Below, piece after piece: positions 17,775-60,600 of a stretch of DNA of 64,000 nt. Source of the stretch: an uncultured Rivularia sp. (GTDB lineage: Bacteria; Cyanobacteriota; Cyanobacteriia; Cyanobacteriales; Nostocaceae); the NCBI GenBank assembly GCA_963665115.1, contig OY762007.1, forward strand, positions 6,336,001-6,400,000, given 5' to 3'. Numbering within the stretch: the first letter of the stretch is position 1; each line of letters starts with the position of its first letter. A program made the translations under genes and the position numbers. The notes beneath the pieces are model-generated. The model saw only the letters and a list, made by a program, of their open reading frames with translations. It was not told the DNA's origin and made no database searches.

Positions 17775-18806
17775 TCACAGCTTTACTGGTGCAAATTCCA
17801 AGCCAGATGCCAAAATCGCTTGCTGACACCTTTCTTGAGACATATCACCCCCAATAACTTTTCGATTGAATTTATTTGCGATCGCAATCATTTCTGGATA
17901 TGGGAGCCAAGGAAAAACGATTGCTTCTCCAGGTAGAGAAAACATATTAATCAACTGTTCCAACTTATTCTGCTGCAATACCGACTCTTCTAAAACAATC
18001 AACGTTTGGGCTACATCAATCAACCAATCGTGATCCCAATTGTTGGAAGTCGCAGCCACAGCCAAGCTCACATCGGGTATATGAGAATGAAATTCAGGTG
18101 CTGCGGTATCTCCACAAAAAACCATATGTTGTCCTTCCAATACATACCAACCCGCTTCAACTTTTATATCGCTAAGGGAGTATGTTTGTTTTTGTTTTAA
18201 TTCTGGTTCGGGGACTTCTACTGATTTAACGTCAATTACTGTAGGTGTAGGAGGAATTAATTGAAGAATTTCGGGAATAGAAGTAGCAGTTATAGGTAAT
18301 TGTGTTTCAGCAACAGGTGTAGAATCATTCTGCTTAACTTCAGGAGGGTTAGATTTCTGCTTGTTCTGCTTAATTTCCGAACTCAATTCCTTGTGAGTAA
18401 TTTTTTCTCCATCATAAGCTTTTAGCAAATACTCTTCCCGTAATTCGTCAGGTGTAGATGGTGCTGCTAAAAGATAAAGAGCAGAAGTAGCAATATCAAT
18501 TTGTGCAAGATTTGCACGTTCCCCAAAAGTTTCATAGACATTTATGAAATTGTATGCTGTACGCCTGCTCCATTCAAATTCCGCTTTTACCCAAGCCTCA
18601 AATTGACCATGCTTCAGTTGAGCGCGTACATCCGCTAACCGCTGACCAATTTCCCAGATATCCTGTGCCGAACGCTGCAAACGCTCCTGAATCTCGCCAG
18701 TTCTTTGCATGACTAGGTTTCGTTGCTCTACAGTCAACGCTTCGTAATCAAACACAGAAGTAGTAATTTGTTTGCTTTTATCCAATTTACTCACACCTAG
18801 CTCCAA
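17775..18806 (-). CDS. DUF3102-domain protein with a degenerate C-terminal DNA-methylase-like segment
   Basis: N-terminal FDY...IWEIGQRL..VRAQLKHGQFEAWVKAEFEWSRRTAYNFINVY...SALYLLAAPSTP is typical of cyanobacterial DUF3102. C-terminal WYVLEGQHMVFCGDT and PGEAIVFPW...RKVIGGD...C resemble N6/N4 methylase flanks. Start is TTG 18806 or GTG 18794. Confidence 0.75.
   Translation of the reverse strand: MELGVSKLDKSKQITTSVFDYEALTVEQRNLVMQRTGEIQERLQRSAQDIWEIGQRLADVRAQLKHGQFEAWVKAEFEWSRRTAYNFINVYETFGERANLAQIDIATSALYLLAAPSTPDELREEYLLKAYDGEKITHKELSSEIKQNKQKSNPPEVKQNDSTPVAETQLPITATSIPEILQLIPPTPTVIDVKSVEVPEPELKQKQTYSLSDIKVEAGWYVLEGQHMVFCGDTAAPEFHSHIPDVSLAVAATSNNWDHDWLIDVAQTLIVLEESVLQQNKLEQLINMFSLPGEAIVFPWLPYPEMIAIANKFNRKVIGGDMSQERCQQAILASGLEFAPVKL
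18503..18517. promoter_or_regulatory. Palindrome GTGCAAGATTTGCAC inside the DUF3102 gene (putative operator)
   Basis: Encodes RANLAQ; matches intergenic copies at 33465, 45913 and 60586. Confidence 0.5.
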
Positions 18807-18928
18807 CTTATCTATTAGATCATAATTTATTTCTTGTCCTAAAAATATGCACCCAGCTATAAGCTATCGCAAAGCATCTCATAAGTTTTGATTAATATAT
18901 AACTTTTGTTAAAAAAAATACGGCGGGG

Positions 18929-18971
18929 TTGACAAGTAACCGCTTTCGTAAGTTAATGAGAATTATTATTA
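18929..18971 (+). promoter_or_regulatory. Sigma70-like promoter overlapped by a Fur-like box, between the divergent DUF3102 and VOC genes
   Basis: TTGACA 18929-18934, 17-bp spacer, GTTAAT 18952-18957; TGAGAATtATTATTA 18957-18971. Confidence 0.5.
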
Positions 18972-19516
18972 TTTGGATTTAAGTATACTTAGTTGCTTAT
19001 GAATTCACCGACTTGAGTCTTGAAAATCTATTAGTTTTTCCGTTTGGAATGCAGTACATATCATTCATATTTATGTCCAAAGGAGGGACACAGAAATAGC
19101 TGTGAATAGTATTGTTTACAAGCCATAACCAAGAAACTTATGTTTTTGACTTAATGAATCCGAATGCAAATTTACATTCATCATAAATTTTGTATAAATT
19201 AAATTCTTCTAGCTGGCTGGTGCAGAAAATTGTCTAAGTACATATACATTGTTAAAGAAGCATCAAATTTTGTTGATAATAATGAGAGATAATCATGTCA
19301 AATAAATAAGAAATTTTAATCATTGCAAACTTTATAGACGATGCAATGAAGCACAATTTCGATAAGTAAAAGCATTTATAAAATGTATTTGTTGCAGAAA
19401 CGAAGAAAAAAATTTACATAACTAGACAAATCTATATATAGATTTTCATGATTATAAGGGTGAATGGGCTTCGGATTAGTTGGACTAAAAACTCAAAAAC
19501 AAATAATAAATAGAAG

Positions 19517-20227
19517 ATGACACAATTATTAGTAGATGAGACGTTGCTGCAAATAGATCACATTTTTGTCTGTCTTGAAACCGCACCTGATAAACTATTC
19601 TTGAAAGATTTAGGTTTAATTTGTACGGATAATGTAACTTTTCATCCACAGCAAGGAACCGCTTCTAGCCTTATTTTTTTTGAAAATACCTATATCGAAT
19701 TAATTTGGGTTGAGGATGAAATGATGGCAGAAATATATGCTATGCGTTCGGGGATAGACTTTACCGCACGTTCCTATTCTCCACAAAAAGCAACTTCTCC
19801 ATTTGGGATTGCTCTTCATCAAAAACCTAAAATTGTTCATCCCGAGTATGGTTCTTCAAGTAGCCTAAATCATCAACCCCCAGAACAATTTATTAATTTT
19901 GCAGCTTCAAATCTTGCTGCTCAAACAGAACCGCTATGTTTTATGATTCCTGAGTCAGTTTCTTTCTCAACCATATTTAATCCTCTTTTAGAAACTCATC
20001 GAAAATTAATAAATCATCCCTTGGGAATCAGAAAGTTAACAAATACTAGTATTGCGATGCGGAAATTCGGATTACTCACCAATCCTATTTCCATGTTGAA
20101 AAGAGACGGAATTATAGAAATAGAACAAAATTCTTCTCCATTATTAGAGTTGACATTTGACTATGGTGTTCAAAGAGAGAGTATTGATTTGCAATCGATT
20201 GGGATTCCGATTGTGTTGAAATATTGA
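19517..20227 (+). CDS. VOC/glyoxalase-like (Glyoxalase_3-type) protein
   Basis: IDHIFVC, HPQQGTASSLIFFENTYIELIWVED and SPFGI pattern; 236 aa. Confidence 0.75.
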   Translation: MTQLLVDETLLQIDHIFVCLETAPDKLFLKDLGLICTDNVTFHPQQGTASSLIFFENTYIELIWVEDEMMAEIYAMRSGIDFTARSYSPQKATSPFGIALHQKPKIVHPEYGSSSSLNHQPPEQFINFAASNLAAQTEPLCFMIPESVSFSTIFNPLLETHRKLINHPLGIRKLTNTSIAMRKFGLLTNPISMLKRDGIIEIEQNSSPLLELTFDYGVQRESIDLQSIGIPIVLKY

Positions 20228-20543
20228 CTCAAAAGTATTATTGTTTTAGGAATATGAATTTAAGTCATGGGTAAAGGTTGAGAGAAAAACATAAACTCTG
20301 TGACCTTTGATTTGCATCTATATATCATGTCTGGTTTAACTTTTATATGACTTTTATGACTGGTGACACACGTAAGGTAATTGGTATTAAAGAATAAATT
20401 AATTCCAGCCTTCGTGCGTATTTTTTATGTCTTTGGGACATTTACAACTTACCGTCATGGTTATATAAAATTGTTGGCAGTACATGAATAAAAAAACACT
20501 TCCGTATAAATATTGATGTTCGCGTAATTTTAAGAATCAAATT

Positions 20544-22145
20544 ATGACAATTGCAATCAGTGCAAATCCCACAGTCCTGACTGAAGAACAGGGAACAGAA
20601 CTCGTTCTTACACTCACTTCAAGCGAACCAATACCGTCGGGTGGTTTGGTTGTTACTATTGATAGTCCGACTGAAAATGCTTTGGGCCAATTGGATGTAT
20701 TCGCAGCCCAATTCCAGAATGGTCGGTTTGTCAGCGTTAATGATGATACTAGTGGGTTCAATTTTCAAATTAACGCATCACCAGCAACTATAACTGTACC
20801 GATTTTTGATGACCAAGATCCTGACGCAGGTAATTTAAGTTTTGCGCTTCAACCAGGTGCAGGATATACAATTGACCCAAATGCAAGTTCGGTAAATTTG
20901 ACTTTGGCAGATGCTGAAAGCCCAACACCAGAACCAGAACCCGAACCAGAACCAGAACCCGAACCAGAACCTGAACCTGAACCTGAACCCGAGCCAGAAC
21001 CAGAGCCAGAACCAGAACCCGAACCCGAACCTGAACCTGAACCAGAACCAACTAATACCATTCCAGTTGCTCAAAACGATAGCTACGCGACTCAAGCGGG
21101 TCAACAGCTGAATATAGATGTAGCTTTAGGAGTATTGACAAATGATACGGATGCTGAGGGCAACCCATTAAATGCTACGATTGTGGATGCTCCAGATAAC
21201 AACGCCAATTTTACCTTTAGCAGTGATGGGTCATTTGCATATACTTCCCTTGATGACTTTAGCGGTACCGATAGCTTTACTTATACAGTTAGCGATGGTG
21301 AGTTAACTTCCGAACCTGCAACGGTAGAAATAAATGTTGCAGCAGCACCCGAGCCGGAACCCGAACCAGAACCAGAACCCGAACCCGAACCAGATACCGA
21401 TACTAGTGTTCCACCATTAGGTTCGGGACCAGAACCAGAACCGGAACCAACTCCGGAACCCGAACCCACACCAGAACCAGATTCATCAGAATCAGAAGTT
21501 AGTGAGATTGTCAATATTGCCTTTAATACAAACGAAGCCGATGCAGCCAGCAATTTAATTTTTGATACAACTCCAGCAGGTGAAGGAACTAATGTCGTTG
21601 CTAGACTTGTTGATGATGTAGAAGATTTAGGAACTGATGCAGCATTTGAGAACCTTGTAGGTTTGTATGAAATAGTAGACGCAAACGGTGGAATAGATAC
21701 TAACGGTGATGGTCAAGCTGATATACTTCCCGGACAAGAAGGTTATGCACTAGCTGCAATCGAAAATCGCGTTGATAATTTTGTATTGCAAGCTGGTGGT
21801 TCGGGAGATGAAGATGATAATACCTCGGTAGAGGAATTTGGAGATGTAATTCTTGAAGGAGGAAAATTATTTGCTCCGTTTATAATTGCTAACGGTGGTG
21901 AATTAGGTTTTGATGGATTTATTGAAAGCGAAGGTGGAGAAGGAAATGCGTTTAACAATGCTGCTGAATCCATTGATGATGCAGTAGCTTATTTCGGCTT
22001 TACCGAAGCGAATCCCGATGGAGTTGCACACTTACAATCTCGTGGGAATAACATCTTCGGCTTTGAAGACCTTCCCAGTAACCTCGCTGGTGTTAGCGAC
22101 AACGACTTCAACGATGCTGTATTCGGGTTTGAATTTTCAGCATAA
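20544..22145 (+). CDS. Acidic modular protein: array-type N-terminal domain, (EP)n linkers, cadherin-like/Big_9 repeat, C-terminal DUF4114-like domain
   Basis: N-terminus [18 protein letters not shown] nearly matches those starting at 45416, 57817 and 59731. [11 protein letters not shown]...GSFAYT...[14 protein letters not shown] repeat; ends FGFEDL...DNDFNDAVF. Confidence 0.8.
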
Positions 22146-22170
22146 TTAATTAGTTAATACCGTTAACTAA

Positions 22171-22351
22171 TGTAGAGACGTAGCAGTGCTACGTCTCCGA
22201 GTATTTAGATTTGCAACGATAATTTTACAGAATGATATTAATAATTTGAGAATTTAGATATTACATAAGTCATTCTCAAACATAATAAAAATAACAAATA
22301 TTTTCGCCGCATTATCATCATTAGGGAGACGTAGCATTGCTACATCTCTAC
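22171..22351. repeat. REPIN-like inverted pair of GTAG-type REP palindromes between convergent genes
   Basis: tgtagagacgtagcagtgctacgtctcc ... ggagacgtagcattgctacatctctaca. Confidence 0.75.
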
Positions 22352-22375
22352 ATTAGTTGCGGGTAATAATTAGAT

Positions 22376-25300
22376 TTAATTATTTCTTTTTCTTAAACGC
22401 TGTTTCAAACGTTCTTTACCGGCGGAAATTTGCTCGTTTCTAGAATTATCTTGCTGAACCTGCATTGAATTAACATTACTAAAATAATTAACAAGCGCAC
22501 TAATAGTTGGATGACGAAACATTTCTACTAAGGGAATATTGGAAGAGAATTTTTCGCGGAGTTGACTCTGAACTTTCACCATTGATAATGAATGTCCTCC
22601 CAAATCAAAAAAATTGTCGTGAATGCCGATTTTTTCTACTTGTAGAACTTGCTGCCAAATTTGAGCAATTTCCCGCTCAATTTCCGATGAAGGTATGACA
22701 TAATTTTCTAATTTAGGACGATTATTATCTGGACTAGGTAAAGCTTTGCGGTCAATTTTACGGTTTGGAGTCAGAGGAAATTCTTCTAACGTAATATAGT
22801 TAGAAGGAATCATATAACCAGGTAGCTTATCTTGTAAAAATTGCCGTAATTCTATTTGTGAAATTTCGGAAGATGATATTAAATAAGCAACTAATCGCTC
22901 ATCATCTTGATTTTTAGATAAAGTTACCACAGCTTGTTTAACATTAGGATGCTGCATCAAAACCGCTTCAATTTCCCCCAACTCAATCCGAAAACCTCTT
23001 AATTTGATTTGATAATCAATTCGTCCGAGATATTCTAAATTACCATCAGGTAGATAGCGTACTAAATCTCCAGTTTTATAAAGATTAGAGGGGGAAGAGA
23101 GGGACGAGGGGGAAGAGGGGGTAGAAGAAGAAAACGGATTGGGAATAAATTTTTGCGCTGTTAATTCTGGTTTATTCAAATAACCCTTTGCTAATCCCGC
23201 ACCACCAATATATAATTGTCCCGGAACACCAATCGGAACAGGTTTTAAATTATCATCAAGAACGTAAAAACTAGTATTATTAATTGGTTTACCAATCGGA
23301 ACATTGGGGGAGACGTTAAATTTAACGTCTCTACATTCAGCTACAGCAGACCAAATTGTAGCCTCCGTTGGACCATATAAATTCCATACATCCTTACTAC
23401 GTTTCAATAATTCATTTGCAACATTTATATCTAAAGCTTCCCCACCACAAAGAACTTTTAACTGTTGATTTCCTTTCCATCCTGCTGCTAACAATAATCT
23501 CCAAGTTGCAGGAGTCGCTTGCATTATGGTAACTTGATTTTCTTCAATGCTTCGCGTTAATTCAATTGCATTTGCAGAAAATTCTCTACTAACAATTACA
23601 AGACGCGCACCTGAAATTAAAGGAAGATATAATTCTAATGCAGCAATATCAAAAGATAATGTTGTTACTGATAGCAATACATCGCTTTCTAATAATCCTG
23701 GTTTTTCCTGCATTGATTCGAGACAGTTAACCAAAGATTTGTGCATAATTTGCACCCCTTTAGGTTTACCAGTGGAACCGCTTGTGTAAATAATGTAGGC
23801 TAGATTTTCGGAAGTTGCTTGGGGTGGTAGATTCTCACAAGATTGCTTTTCAATTAATTCCCAGTCATTATCTAAATTAATCACATTCTGTAGAGACGCG
23901 ATATATCGCGTCTCTACAATATATCGCGTCTTTACAGATTCTATAACTAAAAAATTCACCCCAGAATCTTCCACCATAAACCTCAAACGTTCTTGTGGGA
24001 AAGCTGGATCTAAAGGAATATAGGTTCCACCTGCTTTGAGAATTCCTAATAGCGCGATCGCCATTTTTTCAGAACGTTCTAAGCAAATTCCTACTCGTGT
24101 TTCTCTGGTAACTCCTAACGATTGTAAATAACGAGCAAGTTGATTTGCTTTTTGGTTTAATTCTTTATATGTAAGCTGTTGCGATTCAAATACAACTGCA
24201 ATTTTATCGGGTATTTTTTCCGCTTGTGCTTCAAATAATTGATGAATACAAAGATTTGAATATTCGCAATTAGTCTTATTCCATTCAACAAGTAATTGCT
24301 GCTGTTCTTCCGATGTTAATAAAGGTAATTCTGATAAAACTTCCTGAGAATCAATAAGCATTCCTTCTAGCAAAGTTTGTAAATGACCTAATATTCTTGT
24401 GACTGTTGCTTCATCAAAACGATAACCATCATATAGCATTCGTAACGTGATTTTTGAATCTACAACTACATACAATCCTAAAGGAAAATTATTTTGTTCT
24501 GTTGTATTAATATTTTGTAAACTCAGGTCTTTGATTGCCGATTTTATAGTTGTTTCTACAGGATAATTTTCAAATACAATAATACTTTCAAATAAAGGTA
24601 AACCTCTAGGAACATCACTCCAGCGCTGAATTTCTATTAATGGACTAAATTCATATTGCTGTAATTCTATTTGCTGTTTCTGAAGTTGTTGCAACCAAGG
24701 TAAAAGTTTTTGTTTACCATCAATTTGGACTCGCAATGGTAGAGTATTTATAAATAAACCTACCATTGATTCAGAATTTACAAGCGTTGCCGGACGACCC
24801 GAACTAGTTACACCAAATACAATATCATTCTCACCACTATATCTACTCAACATTAACGCAAAAGCCGCTTGAACCAAAGTATTAAGAGTGAGTTGATGAT
24901 TTTTCGCAAAAGTTTGTAATTTAGACGTAATTTCCTCTGAAACTTGAATTTCTTGCTTTTGATTGTTGGAATTAGGTTTGATTGAAGGCTCTAATTTTTT
25001 ATCTACTCGAAAAGGTGTTGGTGATAGAAAACCCGCAAGATTTTTTCGCCAAAATTGCTCTGCTTCAGGTAAACTTTGTTGTTGTAACCAAGCTATATAA
25101 TCTTTGTATGGACGAGATTTATTTAAAGGTTTATTTAATAGAGATTTACCTTTGCTAATAATACTGTAGCTGCTCAAAACATCTTGAAGTACCAAAGGAA
25201 CAGACCAACCATCAAGTAATAGGTGATGATAAATCCAAATAAACTGATAAATTTGTGGCTGTTTGCGAATTAAAATTAACCTAATTAACGGTGCTTTGCT

Positions 25301-25654
25301 AAGGTTAAATCCTTGTTTTTGCTGATTCTGGAATAACTCTTCTAACTGTTGGTTTTGTGTTGATAATTCAAGAGACAACCAATCAATTAATATAATAGGT
25401 ACTTTAACTTTTCTTCCCACAACTTGAAGCGGTTTTTCCACCTTCTCCCATACAAAAGCCGTGCGTAAAACCGGATGTTTGTCAATAGCTACTTGCCAAG
25501 CTTGTTTAAATGCAGCAATATCTAAATTACCGTGAATTTCAAAACTCACCTGAATTATATAGACACCAGAATTGGGAGCATAAAGACTATGAAACAACAT
25601 CCCCTGCTGCATCGGGGAAAGTGGATAAATATCTTCAATTTGCTTGTTAGTCAC
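22376..25654 (-). CDS. NRPS C(DCL-type)-A(Gly)-T, 1092 aa
   Basis: GTG start; IEDIYPLSPMQQGMLFH and HHLLLDGWS (DCL-like); code DILQLGLIWK; T GGHSL; basic C-terminus GKERLKQRLRKR resembling NRPS-to-PKS docking. Confidence 0.92.
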   Translation of the reverse strand: MTNKQIEDIYPLSPMQQGMLFHSLYAPNSGVYIIQVSFEIHGNLDIAAFKQAWQVAIDKHPVLRTAFVWEKVEKPLQVVGRKVKVPIILIDWLSLELSTQNQQLEELFQNQQKQGFNLSKAPLIRLILIRKQPQIYQFIWIYHHLLLDGWSVPLVLQDVLSSYSIISKGKSLLNKPLNKSRPYKDYIAWLQQQSLPEAEQFWRKNLAGFLSPTPFRVDKKLEPSIKPNSNNQKQEIQVSEEITSKLQTFAKNHQLTLNTLVQAAFALMLSRYSGENDIVFGVTSSGRPATLVNSESMVGLFINTLPLRVQIDGKQKLLPWLQQLQKQQIELQQYEFSPLIEIQRWSDVPRGLPLFESIIVFENYPVETTIKSAIKDLSLQNINTTEQNNFPLGLYVVVDSKITLRMLYDGYRFDEATVTRILGHLQTLLEGMLIDSQEVLSELPLLTSEEQQQLLVEWNKTNCEYSNLCIHQLFEAQAEKIPDKIAVVFESQQLTYKELNQKANQLARYLQSLGVTRETRVGICLERSEKMAIALLGILKAGGTYIPLDPAFPQERLRFMVEDSGVNFLVIESVKTRYIVETRYIASLQNVINLDNDWELIEKQSCENLPPQATSENLAYIIYTSGSTGKPKGVQIMHKSLVNCLESMQEKPGLLESDVLLSVTTLSFDIAALELYLPLISGARLVIVSREFSANAIELTRSIEENQVTIMQATPATWRLLLAAGWKGNQQLKVLCGGEALDINVANELLKRSKDVWNLYGPTEATIWSAVAECRDVKFNVSPNVPIGKPINNTSFYVLDDNLKPVPIGVPGQLYIGGAGLAKGYLNKPELTAQKFIPNPFSSSTPSSPSSLSSPSNLYKTGDLVRYLPDGNLEYLGRIDYQIKLRGFRIELGEIEAVLMQHPNVKQAVVTLSKNQDDERLVAYLISSSEISQIELRQFLQDKLPGYMIPSNYITLEEFPLTPNRKIDRKALPSPDNNRPKLENYVIPSSEIEREIAQIWQQVLQVEKIGIHDNFFDLGGHSLSMVKVQSQLREKFSSNIPLVEMFRHPTISALVNYFSNVNSMQVQQDNSRNEQISAGKERLKQRLRKRNN

Positions 25655-25741
25655 AATTGTTATTATTTTGACTCAATATTCATAGTTCTTATTATAGGGA
25701 ATGAGGAATAGGTAATGAAGAAAAATCCAATTACCAATTAC

Positions 25742-29068: not shown

Positions 29069-29131
29069 GATTTAAAAAGGGAATTGGGCATGGGGGATGA
29101 GATATAAACCTTTAACCTCTAACCAATATTT

Positions 29132-29305
29132 AGTAGGGTGCGTGAAGACCTTGACAAATTACTGTTTTCTATGAATGAATTAATATTGTCTTCACGCACC
29201 TTGTTTTGATAGATAACGAATAACTGGTAATCAAAGGCAATGGTGCGTGACGCTACAATAAATTATCACTACGTACAAAATTTCTCGAAGCGTCACACAC
29301 CCTAC
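29132..29305. repeat. REPIN-like element (GTAGGGTGCGT family)
   Basis: gtagggtgcgtgaagac...gtcttcacgcacc ... ggtgcgtgacgct...agcgtcacacaccctac; truncated copy at ~45728-45760. Confidence 0.7.
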
Positions 29306-29312
29306 AAATTAA

Positions 29313-33169: not shown

Positions 33170-33364
33170 AATTAGGTTATAATTTTCAAAACAATATTTA
33201 ATGCGCTCAACCGCATGGTCAAGGCGATCGCAAATTTAAAGCAGTTAATATTTACTAGAAAATAAAAGTATAAAATTTATCCTCATAAATATTTTGAGGT
33301 TAATTGAACTTTCAATCCTTCAAATTCCCTTGCTGCTTATATTGACATTCTTTTAAGTAGGTTA

Positions 33365-33479
33365 TTGCAAATAATTTTCAGTGTGTTGTTTACGTAAATT
33401 CTACTATAAATTTTCGTGAGTGAAAGTAGTAGTTTTATGAAGTTTTCGTTAAGCAGTAGCGGTTGTGCAAAATTTGCAT
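33365..33479 (-). promoter_or_regulatory. Composite promoter: Fur-like box, TTACGTAAATTCTACTATAAA element, distal AAGTAG..TGAAGTTTTCG element and GTGCAAAATTTGCAT palindrome
   Basis: ttgcaaataattttcag 33365-33381; ttacgtaaattctactataaa 33390-33410; tgaagttttcg 33438-33448; palindrome 33465-33479. Confidence 0.7.
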
Positions 33480-45605: not shown

Positions 45606-45690
45606 TTGCGAAATAATCTCAAGCTTTTTGACTTACGTAAATTCTACTATAAACGATACTTTATAGAAGTAGCAATTTGTGAAGTTTTCG
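45606..45690 (-). promoter_or_regulatory. Composite promoter copy
   Basis: ttgcgaaataatctcaa 45606-45622; ttacgtaaattctactataaa 45633-45653; aagtag...tgaagttttcg to 45690. A second Fur-like box ttgcgaaagcttctcaa lies at 45794-45810. Confidence 0.72.
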
Positions 45691-45912: not shown

Positions 45913-45927
45913 GTGCAAATTTTGCAT
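45913..45927. promoter_or_regulatory. Palindrome GTGCAAATTTTGCAT (putative operator)
   Basis: Matches the copies at 18503, 33465 and 60586. Confidence 0.5.
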
Positions 45928-46074: not shown

Positions 46075-46155
46075 AAAAAATTAATAATGTAGAGACGTAG
46101 CACTGCTACGTCTCCAAATTGATGCGAAATAACGCCTAATTCAGGGAATGATTAT

Positions 46156-50106: not shown

Positions 50107-50376
50107 GTTATTTGTTTTTAGTGAAATTAAATAGTTTGTTGGTCTTCAACGCCGTCCACAAAAATAATGCTTTGAAAAGTGCGATCGCCAATATTATAGT
50201 TTCTACCTTCAACATTAGTTAAAGCAAAATCCAAAAACTGAGCTTCTTCGTCAATTGCATCGGGAATAATTGGAATGATGTAAAAATTTGAAATTTTAGT
50301 TCATAAGATGTAGAGACGTAGCAGTGCTACGTCTCCAAATTGATGCGAAATAACGCCTAATTCAGGGAATGATTAT

Positions 50377-53300
50377 TTAAGCAAACGCAAAATTATCCGT
50401 AATCAAACTATCAGCACCAATTCCTTGCAATATCGCTAAATCTGAGCCATTCGCAGCAATCAAAGAGTTATCTTCCTGCTGGGTGATGCTCAAATCATCA
50501 AAGCCGATTCCTAAACCAGCAATACCAAGCACATCTTCACCGCTGGTAAAGTCAGTAATAATATTTGCTGCTTCCGGAGTTTCGGCTGTAGCAATCCAGA
50601 ATTGATCGGCACCGGCTCCACCAGTAATGATATTATCACCACCCGAAAGTGCAAAGAATTTATCGTCACCTTCACCACCAATCAGGCGATCGCCATTCCC
50701 CAAAATCAAAGTATCATCACCGCTACCAGCATAGATACGGTTTCCACCTTCACTACCAATAGAAGCGTCAATCAAATCATCGGAATCACCACCGAAAACA
50801 ATTTGACTGCTACCTTCTACTTCGATAATATCTCCTTCTAAGGAACCGAATATTGGTTCGGTAGTGGGTTTAGAGCCACCACTATCGGATGCTAATTCGA
50901 CGTTGAGTTCATATTCGCCGAAAAGAATGCCGATTTCGGCGAATATCCAACCGCTACCAACGCTTAGATTATTTTCTACCAAGGGGTCATAATCGGTATT
51001 TCCAAGCTGACTGACACCGACGTAGTAAGTACCCGCTTCCGAGGCTGTAAATTCAAGATAGGGGTCACGGCTAAATTCTTCGTTGGGTGCTGCACCGTTA
51101 TTGACGCTAGCTAATTCGTTACCCGAAGCATCGAATAAGCGCAGTTCCGAATCTAAACGTTGTTCTACTCCTTCAAATTTAGCTGACTCAAAGGGAATAG
51201 AATCAACATCAAGCTTAATCGTATCTCCTGCTTCCAAAGTAAAACTGTAGAAGTCAACATCTTCTGAAGCCTCTACGATTTCACCAACACTAGAATCTAC
51301 TCTTGCGGATTCACCTGGTTCGCGACTACTAAGAGCAGCGGTAAATTTTGCAGTGGGATTAAAGGGATTGATATTGAGATCGATCGCTTCAGAAATCGTA
51401 TCATTAGAATCAAATTCTTCAGTTGGAGCAGGAACTTGTTCTGGAATATCTACCACCGTAATTGTGGCTTCGGGTGCATCGGGGGTCGATTAGGTAATTT
51501 GTAGTTTCAACCAAAGAGAAAGTAGTTGTTTCTACTCCCTCATCTTCACCATCTGATATTGGTGGTAGCTCGACGATAGCAGTAGCATCGGTAATATTAA
51601 GGGAGAAACCCGTGTCTGTAACTTCTGTTATTTCTCCTCCCGTTACGGTAAATGCTTCGGTATCAAACTTCGATAAATCGTCAGCACTGACTGTTACGTC
51701 AACACCTGATTCTGTGGGAAATGCAGTCAGATTAAAGGTAAGCTCGCCTGCTGTATTATCTGACTCAACCGCAACAGTTTCGCTTCTTAAGCTAACTTCT
51801 AAAACAGAATCTGGATTATCAGCAATAGTGAAATTGACGAACGAAGCATTCTCATCAATCGTATACAGAGATCCTTCTTGAAGCGCAAGGTTAAAGCTTT
51901 GTAAACCTTCTTCAAAGGGGTCTTCAAAAGCAGATAAGCTAATAGATGCTTCTTGTTCAGTAATTTTGAAAAAGAAACCGTTAAATTCTCCATTAGGAGT
52001 TGGATAAACACCTCCGCTAACTTCAGCATTGAGAATATCAAATTGAGGTAGGATACCTACTGCATCACCCTTGACAAAAACCAGCACACCTTCAGAGGGC
52101 GGAGCTTCATTAAGGCTAAAGTTGAGCGTTGTTCGATCTCCTTCGGATTCAACTAGTTCGGTTTCGGTAATTGTTAGGCTGATTTCAGGAATAACGTTAG
52201 GTTCTGGAGCTTGCTCTTCACTGTCATAGAATGTGGGTGTGACTTGATTTTCGGTTTCAGATACCCCGTAGCCTTCACCGCCTTCTAAGAAGAACGTTAC
52301 CTCTTCTGGACCATCAGTTTCAGGTTCTAATAGCTGACCCCAATAAGGAGTTCTTGCATTCAATCCGACAAAAGTAACCGGCTCAAATATTCTAAGTTGA
52401 AAACCCGTTTCTCGTCCAGTGTTATCGGTTAGAACATCTACTAATTCTGCTCCAGGCGTAAAAGGAGGAAGAATTAGAGAGCGTACTGAAAAGTAGTCTC
52501 TTAGATAGCTGTCGCTATTTACATTAACTAAAATACCTTCTTCAGGAATTTCTCCTTCAGTTTCTAATACCAGGTTTAAAAGTGAACCCTCTAGGTCAAG
52601 TCCTTCGATTAAATTGTTTGAAAGTACGGTGTCTAAACCAAGCTCCCCAGAAATAACGCGGGGATCTGAAAACTGAGCATAAGTAGCACTGTTAAAGTTC
52701 AAAGAAACCGTTGGCTCACCATCTTGAGCTAAATCGATTGTTTGGGGAAGTGTGTTATTACTACGATTTTGCTGTTCCACTAAAAACGCTCGCTCTTCTG
52801 GATTAAGAGCAATTGTTAGTTCATACTCACCAATATTAAGAGAATCTTCGGAAGCATTAAACCCATCTCCACTAGCTGGAATGAAGGGGTTGTATGTCAG
52901 ACCACCCCAAGTATCGGGCGCACCAAATCTTTGAGGCGCGCCGTTGGAAAAAGAGCTAAGACCTAGATAGTAAGTTCCATCTTCTGGTGCTTCAAATTCA
53001 AGGTATGAATCTCCACTCGATCTGAAAATTTCACCTATCCCTGGACTGAGACCTCTTCCAGTAAGTTCGTTACCGTCTGCGTCAAATATGCGTTGTATGC
53101 CTACAATGCTATTAACCGTATCGAATTCAACGTTTGGAAAAGCTGCTCCATCTGTAGCACGAGAATCGATGTCAGAAGAAATAACGTCTCCTGCTTTAAG
53201 GTCAAATCTGTAGAGGTTTACGTTTTCTACCGCATCAACATAAGTAAAGCTGCCATCTTCATTTTGGTAGCGATTGCCAATATCAAAATCAAAGGTTTCA

Positions 53301-54319
53301 ACAATCGTAACTACTGAATTATCAGCACTGAGTCCAATATCGCTAGCTAAAGGAATAATATCGTTAGGCTCGCTGATATTATCAGGAACTTCTTCGGCAG
53401 TATCGGTAATAGTGAACTCACCACTACTAAAATCATCATTCACCTCATACCCATCACCCGCTTCCAAACTAAAGCTAGCCGTTTCTAACCCCTCAGCTTC
53501 CCCATCAGCAGCAACAGGAAGATTAATTAAAGTCGTAAAATCCGTGAGTCGAATATCAAAACCATCCTCTCGGACGTTGACAATTTCCCCACCATCACTA
53601 ACTTCAATCGCATCTAAACGGAAGCTACTCAAGTTGGGTGCATCAACTCCAACAACTATTCCACCTTCAGGTATTGTTGCTCCAGTGACATTAAAAACAT
53701 GAGCAGAAACCGTTCCGTCTTCCTCTACCAAATAATCCGGTCCCGTATTTAAACTAACTAACGGTAAACCAGTTTCTGGAGTTGGTTCCGGTGTCGGATT
53801 CGGTTCCCGTGTCTGCTCGGTAAGCTGGCTTTCAAGGTCAGCAAATAATACACTACTTGTTGCTGCATTACTATCAATAGTGTAATCGCTGAGATTGCCC
53901 ACATCCCCCAAATCTGCTGCATCCACCTGCTCGCTCGTCTTCAACTGAAACACCGCTTCTACCAAACCATCAAAAGTTTCTGGTAAAAACGTATCGGGTT
54001 CAGAATTATCAAACACATTAATCGTAAAGCTCGCATTCGTAGCTCCTGGATCAATAGTGAGGAAAAAGCCAGAATTATCAAAATTAGTTCCAAGCAACGA
54101 GGGGTTGATATTTTCGACGATTGGATTAACCCCAAACCCCGGTAAATTCAAACGGTTGACAATTTGTTCTACATCGCTATCTACATAAACTTTCAAACCA
54201 CCTTCGGGAGCTGGTTCATCTAAGGAGAAGTTTACAGTTAATGCATTTCCCTTCTCTTCAACGAGCGCATTCTGTTCACCCGAGTAGTTCGTAGTTGTAG
54301 AAAGGCTAACTTGTACCAT
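50377..54319 (-). CDS. Acidic modular RTX-tailed protein (Calx-beta-like repeats plus two PPC-like domains), ~1313 aa after one +1 frameshift
   Basis: ORFs 51419..54319 and 50377..51456 join on removing one G at 51481-51485 (IDPDAPEATITVVDIP). Confidence 0.84.
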
Positions 54320-54490
54320 TATTAATTTTCCTGAAGTTATTGTTATTTTTTCTCGTTACATGAAATGGTGCGCTCACAGCGCGAAAAAGACATATTTTTT
54401 TATAATCCGAATTATTCGTCGCGCCATAACAGAACGGCAGTTTTGCGGCTTTGTGCATCCACACCGCAAACTGCCTCCCCTACGAGTGAT

Positions 54491-57400
54491 TTAAGCGAAA
54501 GCAAAATTATCAGCAACCAAACTATCCGCGCCAATACCTTGCAAAATTGCTAATTCAGAATTATTTGCAGCAATCAAAGTATTATCATCTTGTTGAGAAA
54601 TACTCAAATCATCAAAACCGATACCCAAACCAGCAATACCTAAAACATCTTCACCACTAGCAAAGTCAGTAATAATATTTGCTGCTTCCGGAGTTTCGGC
54701 TGTAGCAATCCAGAATTGATCGGCACCGGCTCCACCAGTAATGATATTATCACCACCCGAAAGTGCAAAGAATTTATCACCACCTTCACCACCAATCAGG
54801 CGATCGCCATTCCCCAAAATCAAAGTATCATCACCGCTACCTGCGTAAATCCGGTTGCTTCCCGTGCTACCAATAGAAGCATCAATCAAATCGCTTTCGT
54901 CACCACCGAAAACAATTTGACTGCTGCCTAACACTTCGATAACGTCTGCTTCGATTGTTCCGAAGGTAGGGGAAGGTGTTGCTGCAACTTGACTATCATC
55001 AATGCTGAAAGCAACTTGTTGAGCGTTGGAATCAACTTCGTAAATTTCTCCATCTATTAAGCTGAAACTAAATTCTTCTAAACCTTCGTTTGCACCGTCG
55101 TCAAAAGTGGTTAAGGTAAGACTCGCATTACTGTCGGTAATCGTCGCTAAGAAACTACTTCCTCCCGAATCTCCCACTGTGGGAAAACCATCGATACCAG
55201 TTGTTTGAATTGCAAAATTTCCATCTTCGTCAAAGATGCTAAATTCACCTAGAATACCACGGGTTTCGCTATCAACGAGAACGGTTAAACCATCTTCAGG
55301 AATTTCTCCATCAACATTAAAGTTGACTGTAAATTGTTCTCCTTCACTTAGTTCGGTTTCGCTGAAAGAAAGTCCAACTGTGGGACCAATTCCAGCACCA
55401 CCATTACCGTCGATTAAGGTAACTCCATCGCTGTTAGTATCGGAAACAGCGTAATTTGAATCTATCGAACCATCATTTTCTATGACAGTAAAGCCAAAAT
55501 CTCGATCTTCTTCTTGAATAACATCGTTGAGGATGGGGAAAACAATAGAACCCTCATTTTCTGAAATAATTAATTCAGTAGTACTGGTTTCGGGGTCGAA
55601 AAATTCACCGATTGCAATATTGTTAAAGGTAACATCAATCTCACCATCTACTTGATCTGTTAAATCTAAATCCCCACTAATAAGAAATGAAAGTCCGTCT
55701 TCGGGAATTTCCCCATCTACGCTAAAGTTAGCAAAAACTGTTGCTTGTTCGTCTTCTTCGGAAACTAAATCTGGTTCAATGCTGAAGCTGACTACTGGTG
55801 CTTCTCCTGTAGGTGGTGTTGGTGTAGTACCGCTTGCATCGCTAAAATTGAGAGTAACTGCACCGTTTTCGGAATCAACTTGATAAGCTTCCCCATCAAT
55901 CACCTCAAAGGTAAATGATTCTAAAGCATCATCCTCATCTATACCTTCATCAATTACGGGTACGGTAATAGTAGCGGTGGGTTCGGTGATAGTAACAAAG
56001 AAACCGCTATCTCCGTCGGCAGGTCTGGGAAACTCGCTAAGTCCTGTAGTCTCAATTTGAGCCACATCAAATTCAGTTAGCGACCTTTGTTGAGTTGCTG
56101 CACCATCGATATCGTTAACTAAAACGGTAAGTCCTTCTGCTGGAATCTCCCCATCAACGTTAAGGGTTAAAGTAATCGAATCTCCTTCAACTACGTCGCT
56201 GTTATCTACAGTTAATCCAACGGTAGGCCCCGCTGGTTGTGTTTCATCGACTACGTTTAAAGTTATGCTACCAGCGTCGGGAGCAACTTCGTATTCTTCT
56301 CCATTCACAATCGTAAAGGGAAGTTCTAAAGGTTCTTCGGCAAGAATATCGTCAAAAACTGAGGTAGTAATTGATGCTTCCGGTTCGGCAATAGTCACGA
56401 AGAAACTGCTACCACCAGCATCCCCAACTTCGGGTAATCCTGCGATTCCATCTAGTTGCAAAGTACTTAAATCGGATAAGTCAAATTGTCCTAAAGCACC
56501 GGGAACCGAACTTTGAACTAAAACCTGTACTCCATCTTCGGGAATTTCCCCATCTGCACTAAAGTTAATGGTTATTTCATCACCTTCAGTTAAATCGGTT
56601 GCACTAGCAGAAATTCCCACATTCGGGCCAATTCCGGGACCACCGTTATCATCAGTTATGGTAAATAGGGTAGAGTTTTGAGATGAATCAACTGTATATC
56701 TTTCTCCTTCCACAAGTTGGAAATCAAAAGGTTGAGTACCTTCTTCGATAATGTCGTTAATGAAGTAAAGCTTGAATGAAGCTTCAGGTTCAGACAATAA
56801 GATATTTATTCTACCAGTGTCATCAGAATCAACGATTTCAGAATTAATGAATTCTGCTTCTGGTTCGGCTGCAAACTGATTGGTAAAGTCAAAAGGAATA
56901 TCAGGATTGCCACCCGAAGTATCCAAGTTTACTATAATTCCTTCTTCGGGAAAATCTCCGGTAACTGTCCACTTCCACTCAACTAAATTATTTTCAGCTT
57001 CTTCCGATAGGGTTGCGGGGGTTGTTTCAAAGCTGACTACTGGTAGTTCTCCCGTGGGTGGTTCTGTTGGAAGTTCGGATTCCGTTGCTGCTTCAACTGT
57101 AATCTCAACGGTTGCAGGTTCGGAAAATATTTCACCGTCGTTAGTTAAATAAGTAAAGGTATCTGTTCCGGAAAATCCCTCGTTAGGAGTATAGCTAAAA
57201 GAACCATCCTCATTTAAAGACAGTTGCCCACTGTCGGGAGTATCTAAAACAGAAACAATTAATTGATTTCCCTCAGCATCAGAATCATTAGCTAATATCC
57301 CCGCATCTACATCTACACTTAATTCCTCTCCCTCAGCAGTTGTATAACTATCGCTTTGAGCAACTGGAGGTGTATTATCTGATGGTTCTGGTTCTACAGG

Positions 57401-57817
57401 AACTTCTGGTTCTTCTGGTGGTGGTTCGATTGTCGTACTTTCCGCATCTTGAAGCGTCAAACTAATAGAATTTGCACTTTCATTAACTGTATAACCTTCA
57501 CCCGGTTGGACGGTAAACGTTAAACCTTCAATTGCATCGGCAACATCATCGTCGAAAATCGGTAAACTTAAAGTTCCCGTTTGCTCGGTGAGTCGAATAC
57601 TAAAACCGGAAGTGTCATCATTCACCCCCACCAAACGTAAATTTTCAAACTCGGTTGCGAACACATCTAATTGAGCCAAAGCATTTTCGGTTTCGCTATC
57701 CACAGTGACAACCAAACCACCTTCGGGTATTGGTTCATCTGAAGTCAGCGTAATCGTTAATACAGTTCCTTCTTCTTCAACTAGAACTGTGGGATTCGCA
57801 CTTATTGAAACTGCCAT
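54491..57817 (-). CDS. Acidic modular RTX-tailed protein (AISANPT domain, cadherin-like/Big_9 repeat, Calx-beta-like repeats), 1108 aa
   Basis: Intact ORF; NTPPVAQSDSY...DGSFSYTPNEGFSGTDTFTY repeat; shared tail. Confidence 0.88.
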   Translation of the reverse strand: MAVSISANPTVLVEEEGTVLTITLTSDEPIPEGGLVVTVDSETENALAQLDVFATEFENLRLVGVNDDTSGFSIRLTEQTGTLSLPIFDDDVADAIEGLTFTVQPGEGYTVNESANSISLTLQDAESTTIEPPPEEPEVPVEPEPSDNTPPVAQSDSYTTAEGEELSVDVDAGILANDSDAEGNQLIVSVLDTPDSGQLSLNEDGSFSYTPNEGFSGTDTFTYLTNDGEIFSEPATVEITVEAATESELPTEPPTGELPVVSFETTPATLSEEAENNLVEWKWTVTGDFPEEGIIVNLDTSGGNPDIPFDFTNQFAAEPEAEFINSEIVDSDDTGRINILLSEPEASFKLYFINDIIEEGTQPFDFQLVEGERYTVDSSQNSTLFTITDDNGGPGIGPNVGISASATDLTEGDEITINFSADGEIPEDGVQVLVQSSVPGALGQFDLSDLSTLQLDGIAGLPEVGDAGGSSFFVTIAEPEASITTSVFDDILAEEPLELPFTIVNGEEYEVAPDAGSITLNVVDETQPAGPTVGLTVDNSDVVEGDSITLTLNVDGEIPAEGLTVLVNDIDGAATQQRSLTEFDVAQIETTGLSEFPRPADGDSGFFVTITEPTATITVPVIDEGIDEDDALESFTFEVIDGEAYQVDSENGAVTLNFSDASGTTPTPPTGEAPVVSFSIEPDLVSEEDEQATVFANFSVDGEIPEDGLSFLISGDLDLTDQVDGEIDVTFNNIAIGEFFDPETSTTELIISENEGSIVFPILNDVIQEEDRDFGFTVIENDGSIDSNYAVSDTNSDGVTLIDGNGGAGIGPTVGLSFSETELSEGEQFTVNFNVDGEIPEDGLTVLVDSETRGILGEFSIFDEDGNFAIQTTGIDGFPTVGDSGGSSFLATITDSNASLTLTTFDDGANEGLEEFSFSLIDGEIYEVDSNAQQVAFSIDDSQVAATPSPTFGTIEADVIEVLGSSQIVFGGDESDLIDASIGSTGSNRIYAGSGDDTLILGNGDRLIGGEGGDKFFALSGGDNIITGGAGADQFWIATAETPEAANIITDFASGEDVLGIAGLGIGFDDLSISQQDDNTLIAANNSELAILQGIGADSLVADNFAFA

Positions 57818-57851
57818 AATTTCTTTCCTATCGATTGGTATCTTTTTACAC

Positions 57852-58015
57852 GGCGTTGCTGTTAGCGTAGCTCGACGTTAGCCATATAAAAGTATGAATA
57901 GCCCCCTGACCCCCCAATTATGGGGGAGAAATATATTTTAAATTCCCCCAATACCCCCAAAATTGAGGGGGTCACGCGGGCAGGGGATTTAGGGGGCTGC
58001 GCTAACAGCAACGCC
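57852..58015. mobile_element. MITE with GGCGTTGCTG TIRs and 8-bp TSD
   Basis: ggcgttgctgttagcg...cgctaacagcaacgcc flanked on both sides by TTTTACAC. Confidence 0.8.
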
Positions 58016-58112
58016 TTTTACACGTTAATTTTGTTTTGCAGCGGAAATCGGAACTCGAATTAACGCACCTTCAGAGCCGGAAGAACTTTACTGATTAATC
58101 TTGAACTAATTA

Positions 58113-58228
58113 TTGCGAATTAATCTCAAGATTATCACTTACGTAAATTCTATGATAAATTCTGCTTCACGAAAGTAACTTTTCATGAAGATTTCGTAAA
58201 GTCAACTGATAAAGTAAGCAATTTGCAA
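58113..58228 (-). promoter_or_regulatory. Composite promoter copy
   Basis: ttgcgaattaatctcaa 58113-58129; ttacgtaaattctatgataaa 58139-58159; aagtaa...tgaagatttcg to 58196; degenerate palindrome gtaagcaatttgcaa 58214-58228. Confidence 0.72.
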
Positions 58229-58318
58229 ATTTATTTTTTCTTAAAAAAAGGTGCATTGAGCCTTATGTAAAGCAACAATGCACCCTGGGTTTGAATGTGG
58301 ACTAAAAAAAGCGGGCTT

Positions 58319-58361
58319 GTAGTAAGGGCTTAAGCCCTTTGAGGACTAAAGTCCTTACTAC
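58319..58361. repeat. GTAG-type REP doublet / possible terminator downstream of the 58375 gene
   Basis: gtagtaagggcttaagccctt tg aggactaaagtccttactac. Confidence 0.55.
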
Positions 58362-58374
58362 GAACTTTGATTAA

Positions 58375-59731
58375 TTAACCGAAAGCAAAGTTATCTCCGC
58401 TTAAACTATCGGCTGCGATATCTGTCAATATCGCTAAATCTGTACCGCTAGCAGCAATCAACGCATTATCTCCCTGCTGAGTGATGCTGACATCCTCGAA
58501 GCCAATACCTAATCCAGCAATACCAAGGACATCTTCGCCACTGGCAAAGTCTTTTATCGTATTGATCCCGTCGGGTAGTTCTGCGGTTGCAATCCAGAAT
58601 TGGTCTGCACCTGCACCACCATGTATGAGGTTGTCCCCACCGCTCATGGCAAAGAACTTGTCGTCACCCGCACCACCGGAGTAATGGTCATCTTCTCCAA
58701 GTATGAAAGTATCGTCACCGCTTCCACCATAGATCCAGTTTCCACCTTCGCTACCAATAGAAGCATCAATCAAGTCATCTGAACCACCACCAAAGACTAG
58801 CTGTGCGCTACCTTCGACTTCAATAACGTCCATTTCCGTGGTTCCGAATTCTGTTGTGAATTCGGTATCAGTTTCACCTTCTCCCGGTTCGGGTAATTCC
58901 GGTTCTGGCTCAGGTTCTGGTTCGGGTTCTGGTTCGGGTTCTGGTTCCGGCTCCGGCTCAGGTTCTGGCTCAGGTTCTGGTTCCGGCTCGGGTTCGGGTT
59001 CTGGCTCAGGTTCGGGTTCTGGTTCTGGTTCTGGCTCAGGTTCGGGTTCTGGTTCTGGCTCAGGTTCTGGTTCTGGCTCAGGTTCGGGTTCTGGTTCTGG
59101 CTCAGGTTCGGGTTCTGGCTCAGGTTCGGGTTCTGGCTCAGGTTCGGGTTCTGGCTCAGGTTCGGGTTCTGGTTCGGGTTCGGGTTCTGGCTCAGGTTCG
59201 GGTTCTGGTTCTGGTTCTGGCTCAGGTTCGGGTTCGGGTTCTGGTTCTGGCTCAGGTTCGGGTTCTGGTTCTGGCTCAGGTTCGGGTTCTGGCTCAGGTT
59301 CTGGTTCTGGCTCAGGTTCTGGTTCTGGCTCAGGTTCGGGTTCTGGTTCTGCACCATCCGCGTCTTGGAGTGATAAAGTCACAGAACCAGCACTTCCATC
59401 AACTTCATATCCTTCACCAGGTACAACATTAAAAGTTAAATCTTGTGCATCATCATCTTGGTCGTCAAAAATCGGTACGGTTATAGTTGCTGGCGATGCG
59501 TTAATTAGAAAATCAAAACCACTGGTATCATCGTTAACGGTTGTAAACCGCCCATTTACAAATTGGGCAGCAAATACGTCTAATTGACCCCAGAGCATTT
59601 TCAGTGGGACTGTCAATAGTAACAGTTAAACCACCTTCCGGTATTGGTTCGCTTGAACTCAGTGTAAGTACTAGCGCAGTCCCTTCTTCTTCCACAAGAA
59701 CTGTGGGATTTGCGCTGATGCTAATTGCCAT
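58375..59731 (-). CDS. RTX-tailed protein: AISANPT domain, (Glu-Pro)~75 spacer, tail; ~451 aa after one +1 frameshift
   Basis: ORFs 59534..59731 and 58375..59616 join on removing one C at 59588-59591 ([10 protein letters not shown], as in paralogues). Confidence 0.83.
58899..59350 (-). repeat. Coding hexanucleotide tandem repeat GARCCN (Glu-Pro)~75
   Basis: ~450 bp of ggttct/ggttcg/ggctca/ggttcc units; shorter copies at 20926-21051 and 21348-21479. Confidence 0.95.
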
Positions 59732-60170
59732 AATTTCAGTGTTAAAACTACATAAACGACGTTGAACCGAATGTATATTTTTAGCTAGCTAAAGGTTCAC
59801 AGATGGTAAATCCGGTAATCTAAAAGTCCGTCTACAAGGACTAATTACGCCCCAGCACGCCTTCTTAAAGCTTGCTGAAACACTCGAACGCACGCAGCAA
59901 AACTCAGTTTATTGATTCCCATGAAGGCATATGGATAGCCAACATCACTTGCTTAAATTTACAAATGCCTTATATCAAAGGGATATAAATGAGTTTGGGT
60001 TGCGTTTACGTCAATTCCGTGGTAAATGATTGGAAAGAGAGTATTAAACTTGACTATTCGGAATACATCCATAGTTAAATCTAACTTCATTTCCATTTAC
60101 ATCTTCCTAAAGACAGACTCGTTCTCGACTAAGTTAAAAACCTATCTTCTTTACTCGATAAGTATTTTTA

Positions 60171-60263
60171 TTGAGAATAACTCTCAAAATATTTACAAGC
60201 AAACACAGTAACATTGTAGTTTTAAATTTTGTAATGCAAGTAGAATCTTCATGAAGTTTGTAT
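60171..60263 (-). promoter_or_regulatory. Fur-like box plus distal element upstream of the 59731 gene
   Basis: tTGAGAATaACTCTCAa 60171-60187; aagtagaatcttcatgaagtttg 60238-60260. Confidence 0.65.
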
Positions 60264-60349
60264 AAAGAGATTTTGCTTATCAGTATATTTGACAAGAATT
60301 GGTAATTGGGAATGGGGGATTGGGCATTGGGCATTGGGCGTTGGTAATA

Positions 60350-60489
60350 GACATCTCCGGAAATAAAAAAACACCTCTCTCCAAACCTCTCTCCTGAGAC
60401 GAGAGAGGCTTTAAACCCCACTTCCCTGGCAGGGAAGGGGGGTAGGGGGGTTAGGTTTTCAACTGTAATGAATGTTTTCCGGAGATGTC
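60350..60489. mobile_element. MITE with GACATCTCCGGAAA TIRs and TA flanks (IS630-like ends), inserted in an STRR tract
   Basis: ta-gacatctccggaaa ... tttccggagatgtc-ta; internal GC-rich hairpins. Confidence 0.7.
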
Positions 60490-60585
60490 TAATGGGGAAA
60501 TTGAGGAATAGTTATTTAAGTAACAATGTCAAAATTATATTTTTTAATGCACATTTATGTGCAAATTAGTGTAACATATTGTGCC

Positions 60586-60600
60586 GTGCAAAATTTGCAC
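60586..60600. promoter_or_regulatory. Palindrome GTGCAAAATTTGCAC (putative operator)
   Basis: Best copy of the motif; a related tgcacatttatgtgca lies at 60548-60563. Confidence 0.5.

Follow-up and report, generated by a model that had tools for sequence, protein, structure and literature searches.

The DUF3102 gene of an uncultured Rivularia sp. carries within its coding sequence a palindrome, GTGCAA-N3-TTGCAC, which recurs across the siderophore-type gene cluster surrounding the gene, and sequence comparison and structural modelling make it very probable that the encoded protein binds this palindrome. The window analysed here is the whole stretch of 64,000 nucleotides from contig OY762007.1, positions 6,336,001-6,400,000 (genome label G000). 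It contains five matches to the palindrome at one mismatch or fewer, against 0.09 expected from shuffled sequences, none of 100 shuffles reaching five. The in-gene copy (18503..18517) is perfect, GTGCAA-GAT-TTGCAC, and provides the codons for RANLAQ, starting with codon 97, directly after a putative recognition helix, WSRRTAYNFINV (18537-18572, minus strand). Intergenic copies are found at 33465..33479 and 45913..45927, with one mismatch each, and at 60586..60600, where the match is perfect. The fifth, with one mismatch (23741..23755), lies in the adenylation domain of a non-ribosomal peptide synthetase (NRPS), where it encodes the peptide KGVQIMH. An initial annotation of this DNA had reported the in-gene palindrome with its peptide and the three intergenic copies, and had considered them difficult to attribute to chance; all of this is borne out. 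It had also listed a degenerate copy at 58214..58228. The offset there, 87 bp from a Fur-like box, indeed comes within 1 bp of that found for 33465 (86 bp), but the sequence is a half-site with five mismatches, possibly a decayed copy of the palindrome. An inverted arrangement, TTGCA-N7-TGCAA, is present at 17681-17698, between the stop codon of the DUF3102 gene and the start of a polyketide synthase (PKS) gene; in some orthologues a normal site is found here, 55 bp past the DUF3102 stop.

The count over the whole genome, which the initial annotation had proposed as a check, revealed that the motif is concentrated in the cluster. The 8.69-Mb genome holds seven perfect and 30 one-mismatch sites, and four of the seven perfect sites and nine of all 37 fall within 6.30-6.45 Mb, or 1.7% of the genome, against 0.05 and 0.49 expected. 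The array thus reaches past the window, with sites at genome positions 6306049, 6322018, 6435700 and 6444863, all in coding sequence; altogether, three of the nine cluster sites are intergenic, one lies in the DUF3102 gene and five lie in other coding sequence. Sites 23741 and 6435700 go back to the duplication of a single NRPS segment (their flanks are 88% identical), leaving eight independent sites rather than nine, and apart from this pair the flanks of the sites of this genome are unrelated. Since the choice of the 6.30-6.45 Mb stretch was made with the data already in view, a ranking by best 150-kb window was drawn up for every one of the 3898 words of 6-N3-6 form. The palindrome ranked 16th before collapsing, behind many tandem or repeat-borne words, and first after close and repeat-flanked copies had been collapsed, with a corrected P of about 0.009 (top 150 words re-scored). 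A generic repeat or the site of a global regulator, which the initial annotation had named as refuting its proposal, was rejected on this ranking of the 150 re-scored words. Outside the cluster, perfect sites occur at G000:C1:1761340 and 6934668, both inside longer hairpin-like palindromes, and at 5751700.

Codon usage shows that the in-gene site is under constraint at the DNA level. Its codons are nearly fixed (CGT in 53/57, GCA in 64/69, CTT in 42/48 and GCA in 62/66), and among 72 orthologues fixation of synonymous codons reaches 88-94% here, compared with 31-66% for the commonest codon of the same residues nearby. With regard to the NRPS site at 23741, which the initial annotation had thought might be a coding coincidence, codon comparison in the same peptide context goes against that view, and the site is probably no coincidence. 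It falls in a natural motif, PKGVQI[LMIF]H, whose instances match the palindrome at one mismatch or fewer in 8/8 cases in gene-bearing genomes and 0/30 elsewhere. The NRPS modules may be orthologous, yet the codons just upstream vary freely, and one genome (G088) has a perfect site in the same NRPS region in another frame.

Gene and sites also co-occur across relatives, the comparison of orthologous clusters that the initial annotation had called for. A DUF3102 match is present in 46 of 151 genomes of the family, and the full-length form in 10, this genome included, all of which keep GTGCAA-N3-TTGCAC inside the gene. Eight regions were fetched from the nine other genomes, and each of the eight orthologues is located within an NRPS/PKS cluster or at its border, next to the same glyoxalase-like gene. 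The extra sites number 2, 5, 2, 3, 2, 1, 1 and 2, respectively, and none lies in the long flanks of G135, G043 and G133. Scanning species genomes yielded 76 loci, of which 72 were parsed and six overlap the regions already fetched. Here, the in-gene site is perfect in 52/72 and near-perfect in 57/72 loci, the glyoxalase-like gene lies within 10 kb in 52/72, an NRPS, PKS or fatty acyl-AMP ligase (FAAL) gene within 10 kb in 46/72, and some cluster gene in 63/72. Further sites at these loci number 31, or 27 without the four in tandem second gene copies, against 3.9 expected. These tandem copies of the DUF3102 gene, at L133, L135, L155 and L156, stand 1.5-2.5 kb from the first copy and have one-mismatch in-gene sites.

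The perfect word GTGCAAAWTTTGCAC occurs outside the gene in 6/10 gene-bearing genomes against 3/141 others. Within one genus of 18 genomes, the five that carry the gene have 5-8 sites, two or three of them perfect in each, compared with 0-5 sites, none perfect, in the 13 gene-less genomes. In G296, all five genome-wide matches are within 76 kb around the gene, and at a looser pattern G296 and G303 have six sites each, all within the cluster. Dispersed palindromic sites confined to the element are a feature shared with the KorB/ParB/VirB CTP-clamp proteins. In an order-wide sample, the perfect word was found in 6/151 genomes, and three of the four hits outside the family were inside DUF3102 genes. 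The plasmid with the proven siderophore cluster for cyanochelin B (PMC12628792) yielded no DUF3102 gene match and no site in 98 kb.

The DUF3102 gene (17775..18806, minus strand) is an open reading frame (ORF) of 343 residues, 339 in the database form, predicted to encode a DNA-binding-type domain, a disordered linker and a degenerate beta-class methylase domain. It matches the DUF3102 family (PF11300) with 50 bits against a cut-off of 24.4, and it is the only DUF3102 gene above the Pfam cut-off in the genome. The AlphaFold2 model begins with a long helix and has two ordered domains joined by a disordered linker, with a mean predicted local distance difference test score of 82. The N-terminal domain (residues 16-153; 18348..18761, minus strand) has as best fold matches KorB 8qa8 (Z 7.2, root-mean-square deviation (rmsd) 2.9, 95 residues aligned), ParB 6s6h (Z 6.6) and Spo0J 1vz0 (Z 6.4); KorB, ParB, Spo0J, KorB, SopB and SopB take ranks 1, 2, 3, 5, 7 and 9 of 48,161 chains. 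A sequence search of solved structures gave no match for the protein, nor did Foldseek at E<=0.001. The N-terminal CTPase domain of ParB (ParB_N) has no match in the protein, one being obtained with a control protein of the same genome, and the arginine patch GxxRxxA is present in 1/101 orthologue N-termini. The initial annotation had taken the protein for a cluster-dedicated DNA-binding regulator analogous to ParB/KorB-type systems with their parS-like sites. The regulator part of that proposal is supported by the clustering of the motif, the co-occurrence of gene and sites and the KorB/ParB-type fold; the analogy with parS and a sliding clamp fails mechanistically, because the protein has no ParB CTPase domain and has a degenerate methylase fold instead.

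The C-terminal domain (residues ~219-343; 17778..18152, minus strand) adopts in the model the fold of beta-class DNA amino-methyltransferases, with Z scores of 9.4-11.2 and 109-120 residues aligned in the top eight rows, among them M1.HpyAVI (Z 11.2, rmsd 2.1, 109 aligned) and MboIIA (Z 10.9). In beta-class methylases, [DNS]PP[YF] is the catalytic motif and FxGxG binds S-adenosylmethionine. The former is present in 0/101 orthologues and the latter in 1/101, their place being taken by conserved GDT, WDHDW and FPWLP. An active methylase with the palindrome as its target was rejected, the catalytic motifs being missing from the orthologues. Beyond cyanobacteria, the look-alikes are mostly viral DUF3102 or methylase proteins, at scores below 0.9 that make them a lead only, and on that account the sequences fit a phage-derived origin of the DUF3102 protein; ParB-methylase fusions are described as phage-enriched in the accessible text of PMC12704722.

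Other genes of the family and of this genome were also encountered. A degenerate DUF3102-like remnant with an internal stop is found at G000:C1:573262-573480. A ParB_N protein that shares the pseudo-methylase C-terminal domain (L119:7512-8897; G000:C1:7849512-7850897, minus strand) is present in 95/151 family genomes. Its gene, too, contains a palindrome, GTGAAA-N3-TTTCAC, one base away from the DUF3102 word in each half-site, which occurs once in this genome and is retained in the few homologues that were parsed. As an obligate partner of the DUF3102 gene it is unsupported: it occurs in 95/151 genomes, was not found in G043 and was not listed for G135 or G110.

Comparison of paralogous clades bears on which part of the protein reads the site. 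These clades have a different palindrome centred on the same codon together with a different helix, the helix/word pairs being RSTAYNYI/GTCCAA, VRTAARFM/GTGCCA, ISTATKFM/CGTAA and WTARKFM/CTGTGA; of 30 DUF3102 loci, one is without an in-gene palindrome. The RRTAYNF type forms a single clade of 60 rows with 98% support, in a quick tree of few columns, and P0121, an orthologue in which both the helix and the RANLAQ peptide are the same, is attributed by its source to Nostoc sp. PCC 7120, which is genetically tractable. At three loci (L177, L185 and L178), the in-gene palindrome and its peptide have changed, and the helix and perfect outside sites are kept; L177 and L185 are sister rows, which makes about two loss events. 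Because these loci lost the palindrome yet kept helix and outside sites, the comparison points to the helix, rather than the encoded peptide, as the predicted reader. That the peptide sets specificity is disfavoured by the same loci. No array was found for 3/4 paralogous words, of which there are practically no copies outside the gene. What the family has in common is therefore the in-gene site, whereas the array is particular to a clade. The CTGTGA clade (L099, L102-L103; G006 and G057) has the word CTGTGAAATTCACAG, with a perfect intergenic copy 3-4 kb upstream in both genomes, and adjoins DevB/DevC- and HemF-like ORFs, judged by sequence. Its neighbourhood appears to resemble the tolyporphin clusters, in which a DUF3102 gene is described in the parts available (PMC8401325). 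Most other DUF3102 paralogues (L081-L117) adjoin PKS, NRPS, acyl-CoA ligase or DevBCA-like genes, as judged from the ORF sequences.

The nine sites span a 140-kb cluster with NRPS, PKS and FAAL-like genes, a TonB-dependent transporter, ATP-binding cassette and major facilitator superfamily transporters, and an array of large acidic proteins. The initial annotation had tied the sites to the promoters of this array; intergenic copies are indeed found there, while others lie in coding regions, so that the sites mark the whole NRPS/PKS cluster and not the array promoters alone. With NRPS/PKS genes, a TonB-dependent transporter and Fur boxes, the cluster has the composition of a FurA-regulated siderophore cluster, each box being weak singly, since 22 places in the window reach 14/19 to the FurA consensus. 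Against the published consensus (PMC4005646), the Fur-like boxes match at 12, 14, 15 and 14 of 19 positions. The box upstream of the DUF3102 gene (18951..18969, minus strand; 14/19) comes just after a -10-like TATACT, and another (60166..60184, minus strand; 14/19) lies downstream of site 60586. A repeated cassette, TAGAATTTACGTAA followed by a FurA-like box (33360..33406, minus strand; further copies end at 45649 and 58152), precedes several units of the cluster and may act as their promoter. The three intergenic sites are upstream of Fur-like boxes, as the initial annotation had it, but their distances to the boxes vary (86 bp for 33465, 293 bp for 45913 and 401 bp for 60586), with no constant spacing. 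These distances argue against a fixed-position activator site. A Fur-like box with two mismatches or fewer precedes 42/71 copies of the DUF3102 gene, against 8.6% of shuffles, which makes it likely that the protein is made when the cluster is on.

Several features of the cluster stand beside this pattern. The usual DUF3102 neighbour, a divergent glyoxalase-like gene (19517..20227, plus strand), matches PF13468 below the cut-off. The cassettes at 33406, 45649, 58152 (minus strand), ~37770 and G000:C1:6316095 carry a palindrome, TTACGTAA, between the -10-like element and the Fur-like box, which may be a candidate site for a further factor. At least ten paralogous large acidic proteins are encoded at 20544-59616 inside the cluster, with PPC, Big_9, DUF4114 and twin beta-lactamase-like domains, a histidine-phosphatase-like insert and a shared RTX-like tail; related genes also occur in orthologous clusters. 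Frameshifts at 6007, 7151 and 16166 split NRPS/PKS genes. The contigs of runs X4, X5 and X6 are one base shorter at each, and X3 agrees with the window, so that the frameshifts would be isolate-specific changes or assembly errors.

As a whole, we propose, with even chances of being right, that the DUF3102 protein is a second-tier, cluster-wide regulator, likely dimeric on the palindrome, that supports expression at low iron. Fur would release the DUF3102 gene together with the cluster, and the WSRRTAYNF helix would then read the GTGCAA half-sites. As a CTP clamp is missing and the spacing to promoters varies, the protein may bridge or insulate sites, both at the junctions of operons and within long NRPS genes, rather than contact the polymerase at a set distance. 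The in-gene site would limit the protein's own synthesis and tie reader and address together when the gene moves, and the pseudo-methylase domain could dimerise or sense a ligand. The positive sign of the regulation is the weakest step of this scheme.

A number of observations weigh against it. The in-gene site has more than one mismatch in 15/72 orthologue loci, and 9/72 have no cluster gene within 10 kb. Gene-less G300 has five scattered one-mismatch sites, and a second NRPS cluster of this genome, without a DUF3102 gene, has one. For three of the four paralogous words tested, hardly any copies occur outside the gene, and no in-gene palindrome was seen in the one Streptococcus phage homologue checked. 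The Z scores of 6-9 for the N-terminal fold are modest for a helical domain, and Raf1 scores alike. Many sites are orthologous and kin are non-independent, so that P values overstate the case, and the siderophore-type product is predicted from gene content. A repressor-like position is taken by one conserved site, 45-47 bp ahead of the start of the FAAL gene.

That last site leads to a doubtful but plausible alternative, in which the same sites serve a brake on the costly cluster: a repressor or roadblock, resembling KorB or a stoperator, that would restrict read-through and set a ceiling on expression. In co-directional gaps, 16/18 sites lie nearer the stop of the upstream gene (median 0.12 of the gap), as expected of a read-through barrier, and other sites are inside long genes, NRPS genes among them; the best fold match, KorB, is moreover a long-range repressor in the available text of PMC11790492. 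The DUF3102 gene has its own Fur-like box, however, so that little of a brake would be present at the very time silencing is required; the majority of the sites are clear of the promoter cassettes, and the CTPase domain that KorB requires for distant repression is missing. Improbable, in our view, is a role in DNA maintenance, in which the protein, inherited from a phage or plasmid, would serve to partition, position or mobilise the cluster, taken as a genomic island. The ParB/SopB/Noc-type fold and the mostly viral look-alikes (a lead only, as above) would suit it, as would the patchy distribution of the cluster (5/18 genomes in the one genus) and a paralogue in G037 that adjoins a ParA-like ORF, judged from N-terminal sequence. 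It is opposed by the missing ParB N-terminal domain, by sites at operon junctions and the Fur-like box of the gene, and by the location of the clusters of G000, G135, G296 and G303 on multi-megabase contigs. Furthermore, no ParA-like gene was seen beside DUF3102 in the window and 10 orthologue clusters, where the neighbours are glyoxalase-like, NRPS/PKS and transport genes, as labelled by BLAST to the proteins of this cluster and with no ParA profile.

It is more improbable still that another cluster or host regulator binds the palindrome and that the DUF3102 gene is one target among others. Binding by the DUF3102 protein is a prediction, and glyoxalase-like and other cluster genes co-occur with the sites as well; yet all DUF3102 clades examined carry a palindrome at one and the same codon, with a word that is particular to the clade and varies along with the helix. 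Of four hits that the perfect word by itself gave outside the family, three fell in DUF3102 genes, and no other shared DNA-binding gene was recognised among the clusters, without a scan of every ORF. Least credible of all is that the pattern arose as a by-product, through coincidence in the A-N-L-A and V-Q-I-L-H codons, through common ancestry of a small number of sites or through an RNA hairpin. In favour of this, adenylation domains naturally contain V-Q-I-x-H, several of the sites have orthologues in other genomes, and the peptides of the family are encoded by codons that come close to a palindrome. Against this, synonymous positions are frozen at the site only, the same peptide elsewhere avoids these codons (0/30), and 33 non-coding sites, some duplicated between loci, share a sharp 15-bp consensus in varied gene contexts, with unrelated flanks in this genome but for one pair. 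The codon tests largely refute this reading.

The proposed second-tier regulator can be set beside known systems. The sites of ParB-parS, SopB-sopC and Noc-NBS are palindromes of 15-16 bp, some of them inside genes. The DNA-binding fold is shared with these systems, whereas the ParB N-terminal domain is missing here and the sites are confined to one biosynthetic cluster. Mycobacteriophage stoperators are asymmetric sites oriented with transcription; the consensus found here is, by contrast, a symmetric palindrome. Phage fusions of DUF3102 with N6-N4 methylases have the same domain order as the cluster protein, but the cluster gene has lost the methylase motifs, is chromosomal, has a Fur-like box and is tied to siderophore clusters. 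KorB of plasmid RK2 has a similar ParB-type DNA-binding fold (Z 7.2) and likewise amounts to one protein per large element, and its palindromic OB sites lie from 45 bp to more than 1 kb from promoters, in the available part of the source (PMC11790492). KorB differs in its CTPase clamp, its partner KorA and its plasmid location, the DUF3102 protein having a pseudo-methylase domain but no CTPase domain, and its gene lying in a biosynthetic cluster on the chromosome and containing one of the sites itself. VirB of Shigella, as described in the accessible portion of PMC10770331, is also a ParB-related, positive and position-flexible regulator of one large gene set; unlike the DUF3102 protein, which lacks a CTP domain and has no known silencer to oppose, it needs CTP and counters H-NS. 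By analogy and on the structural model, the DUF3102 system would work like KorB-OB or VirB-virS and not be a member of the CTP-clamp family. FurA controls the nine-gene siderophore cluster of Anabaena through Fur boxes at several NRPS/PKS promoters, a comparable layout, but is a global regulator, and the available text mentions no cluster-specific factor or such palindrome (PMC4005646). In tolyporphin clusters, the DUF3102 gene lies at the edge and is listed among transport-related genes, the parts available mentioning no site or regulatory role (PMC8401325, PMC10459692), and the presumed clade has a different word.

A broader and rather unlikely view, which we offer as speculation, is that cyanobacteria domesticated a phage DUF3102-methylase fusion as a portable address system, with a site in each gene, so that reader and address move and diverge as a unit. 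The siderophore clade would bridge its sites over 50-140 kb and fold the cluster, with no CTP clamp, into a single regulatory domain; the dead methylase would serve for dimerisation or for sensing a ligand, and other clades would address other clusters, for example tolyporphin-like ones.

The titles and abstract openings of the literature searched, with subscription papers on the Anabaena cluster outside this scope, held no earlier description of an in-gene DUF3102 palindrome or of such cluster-dedicated control, and the link of DUF3102 palindromes to chromosomal siderophore clusters is new. DUF3102, left unexplained in the available parts of the literature that mentions it, gains a predicted DNA target and a biological setting. 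The finding points towards a level of control that is specific to the cluster and subordinate to Fur in cyanobacterial siderophore synthesis, and it suggests that a ParB-type domain may regulate at long range without the help of CTP. The palindrome also marks the extent of the cluster and may offer a handle for switching such clusters on.

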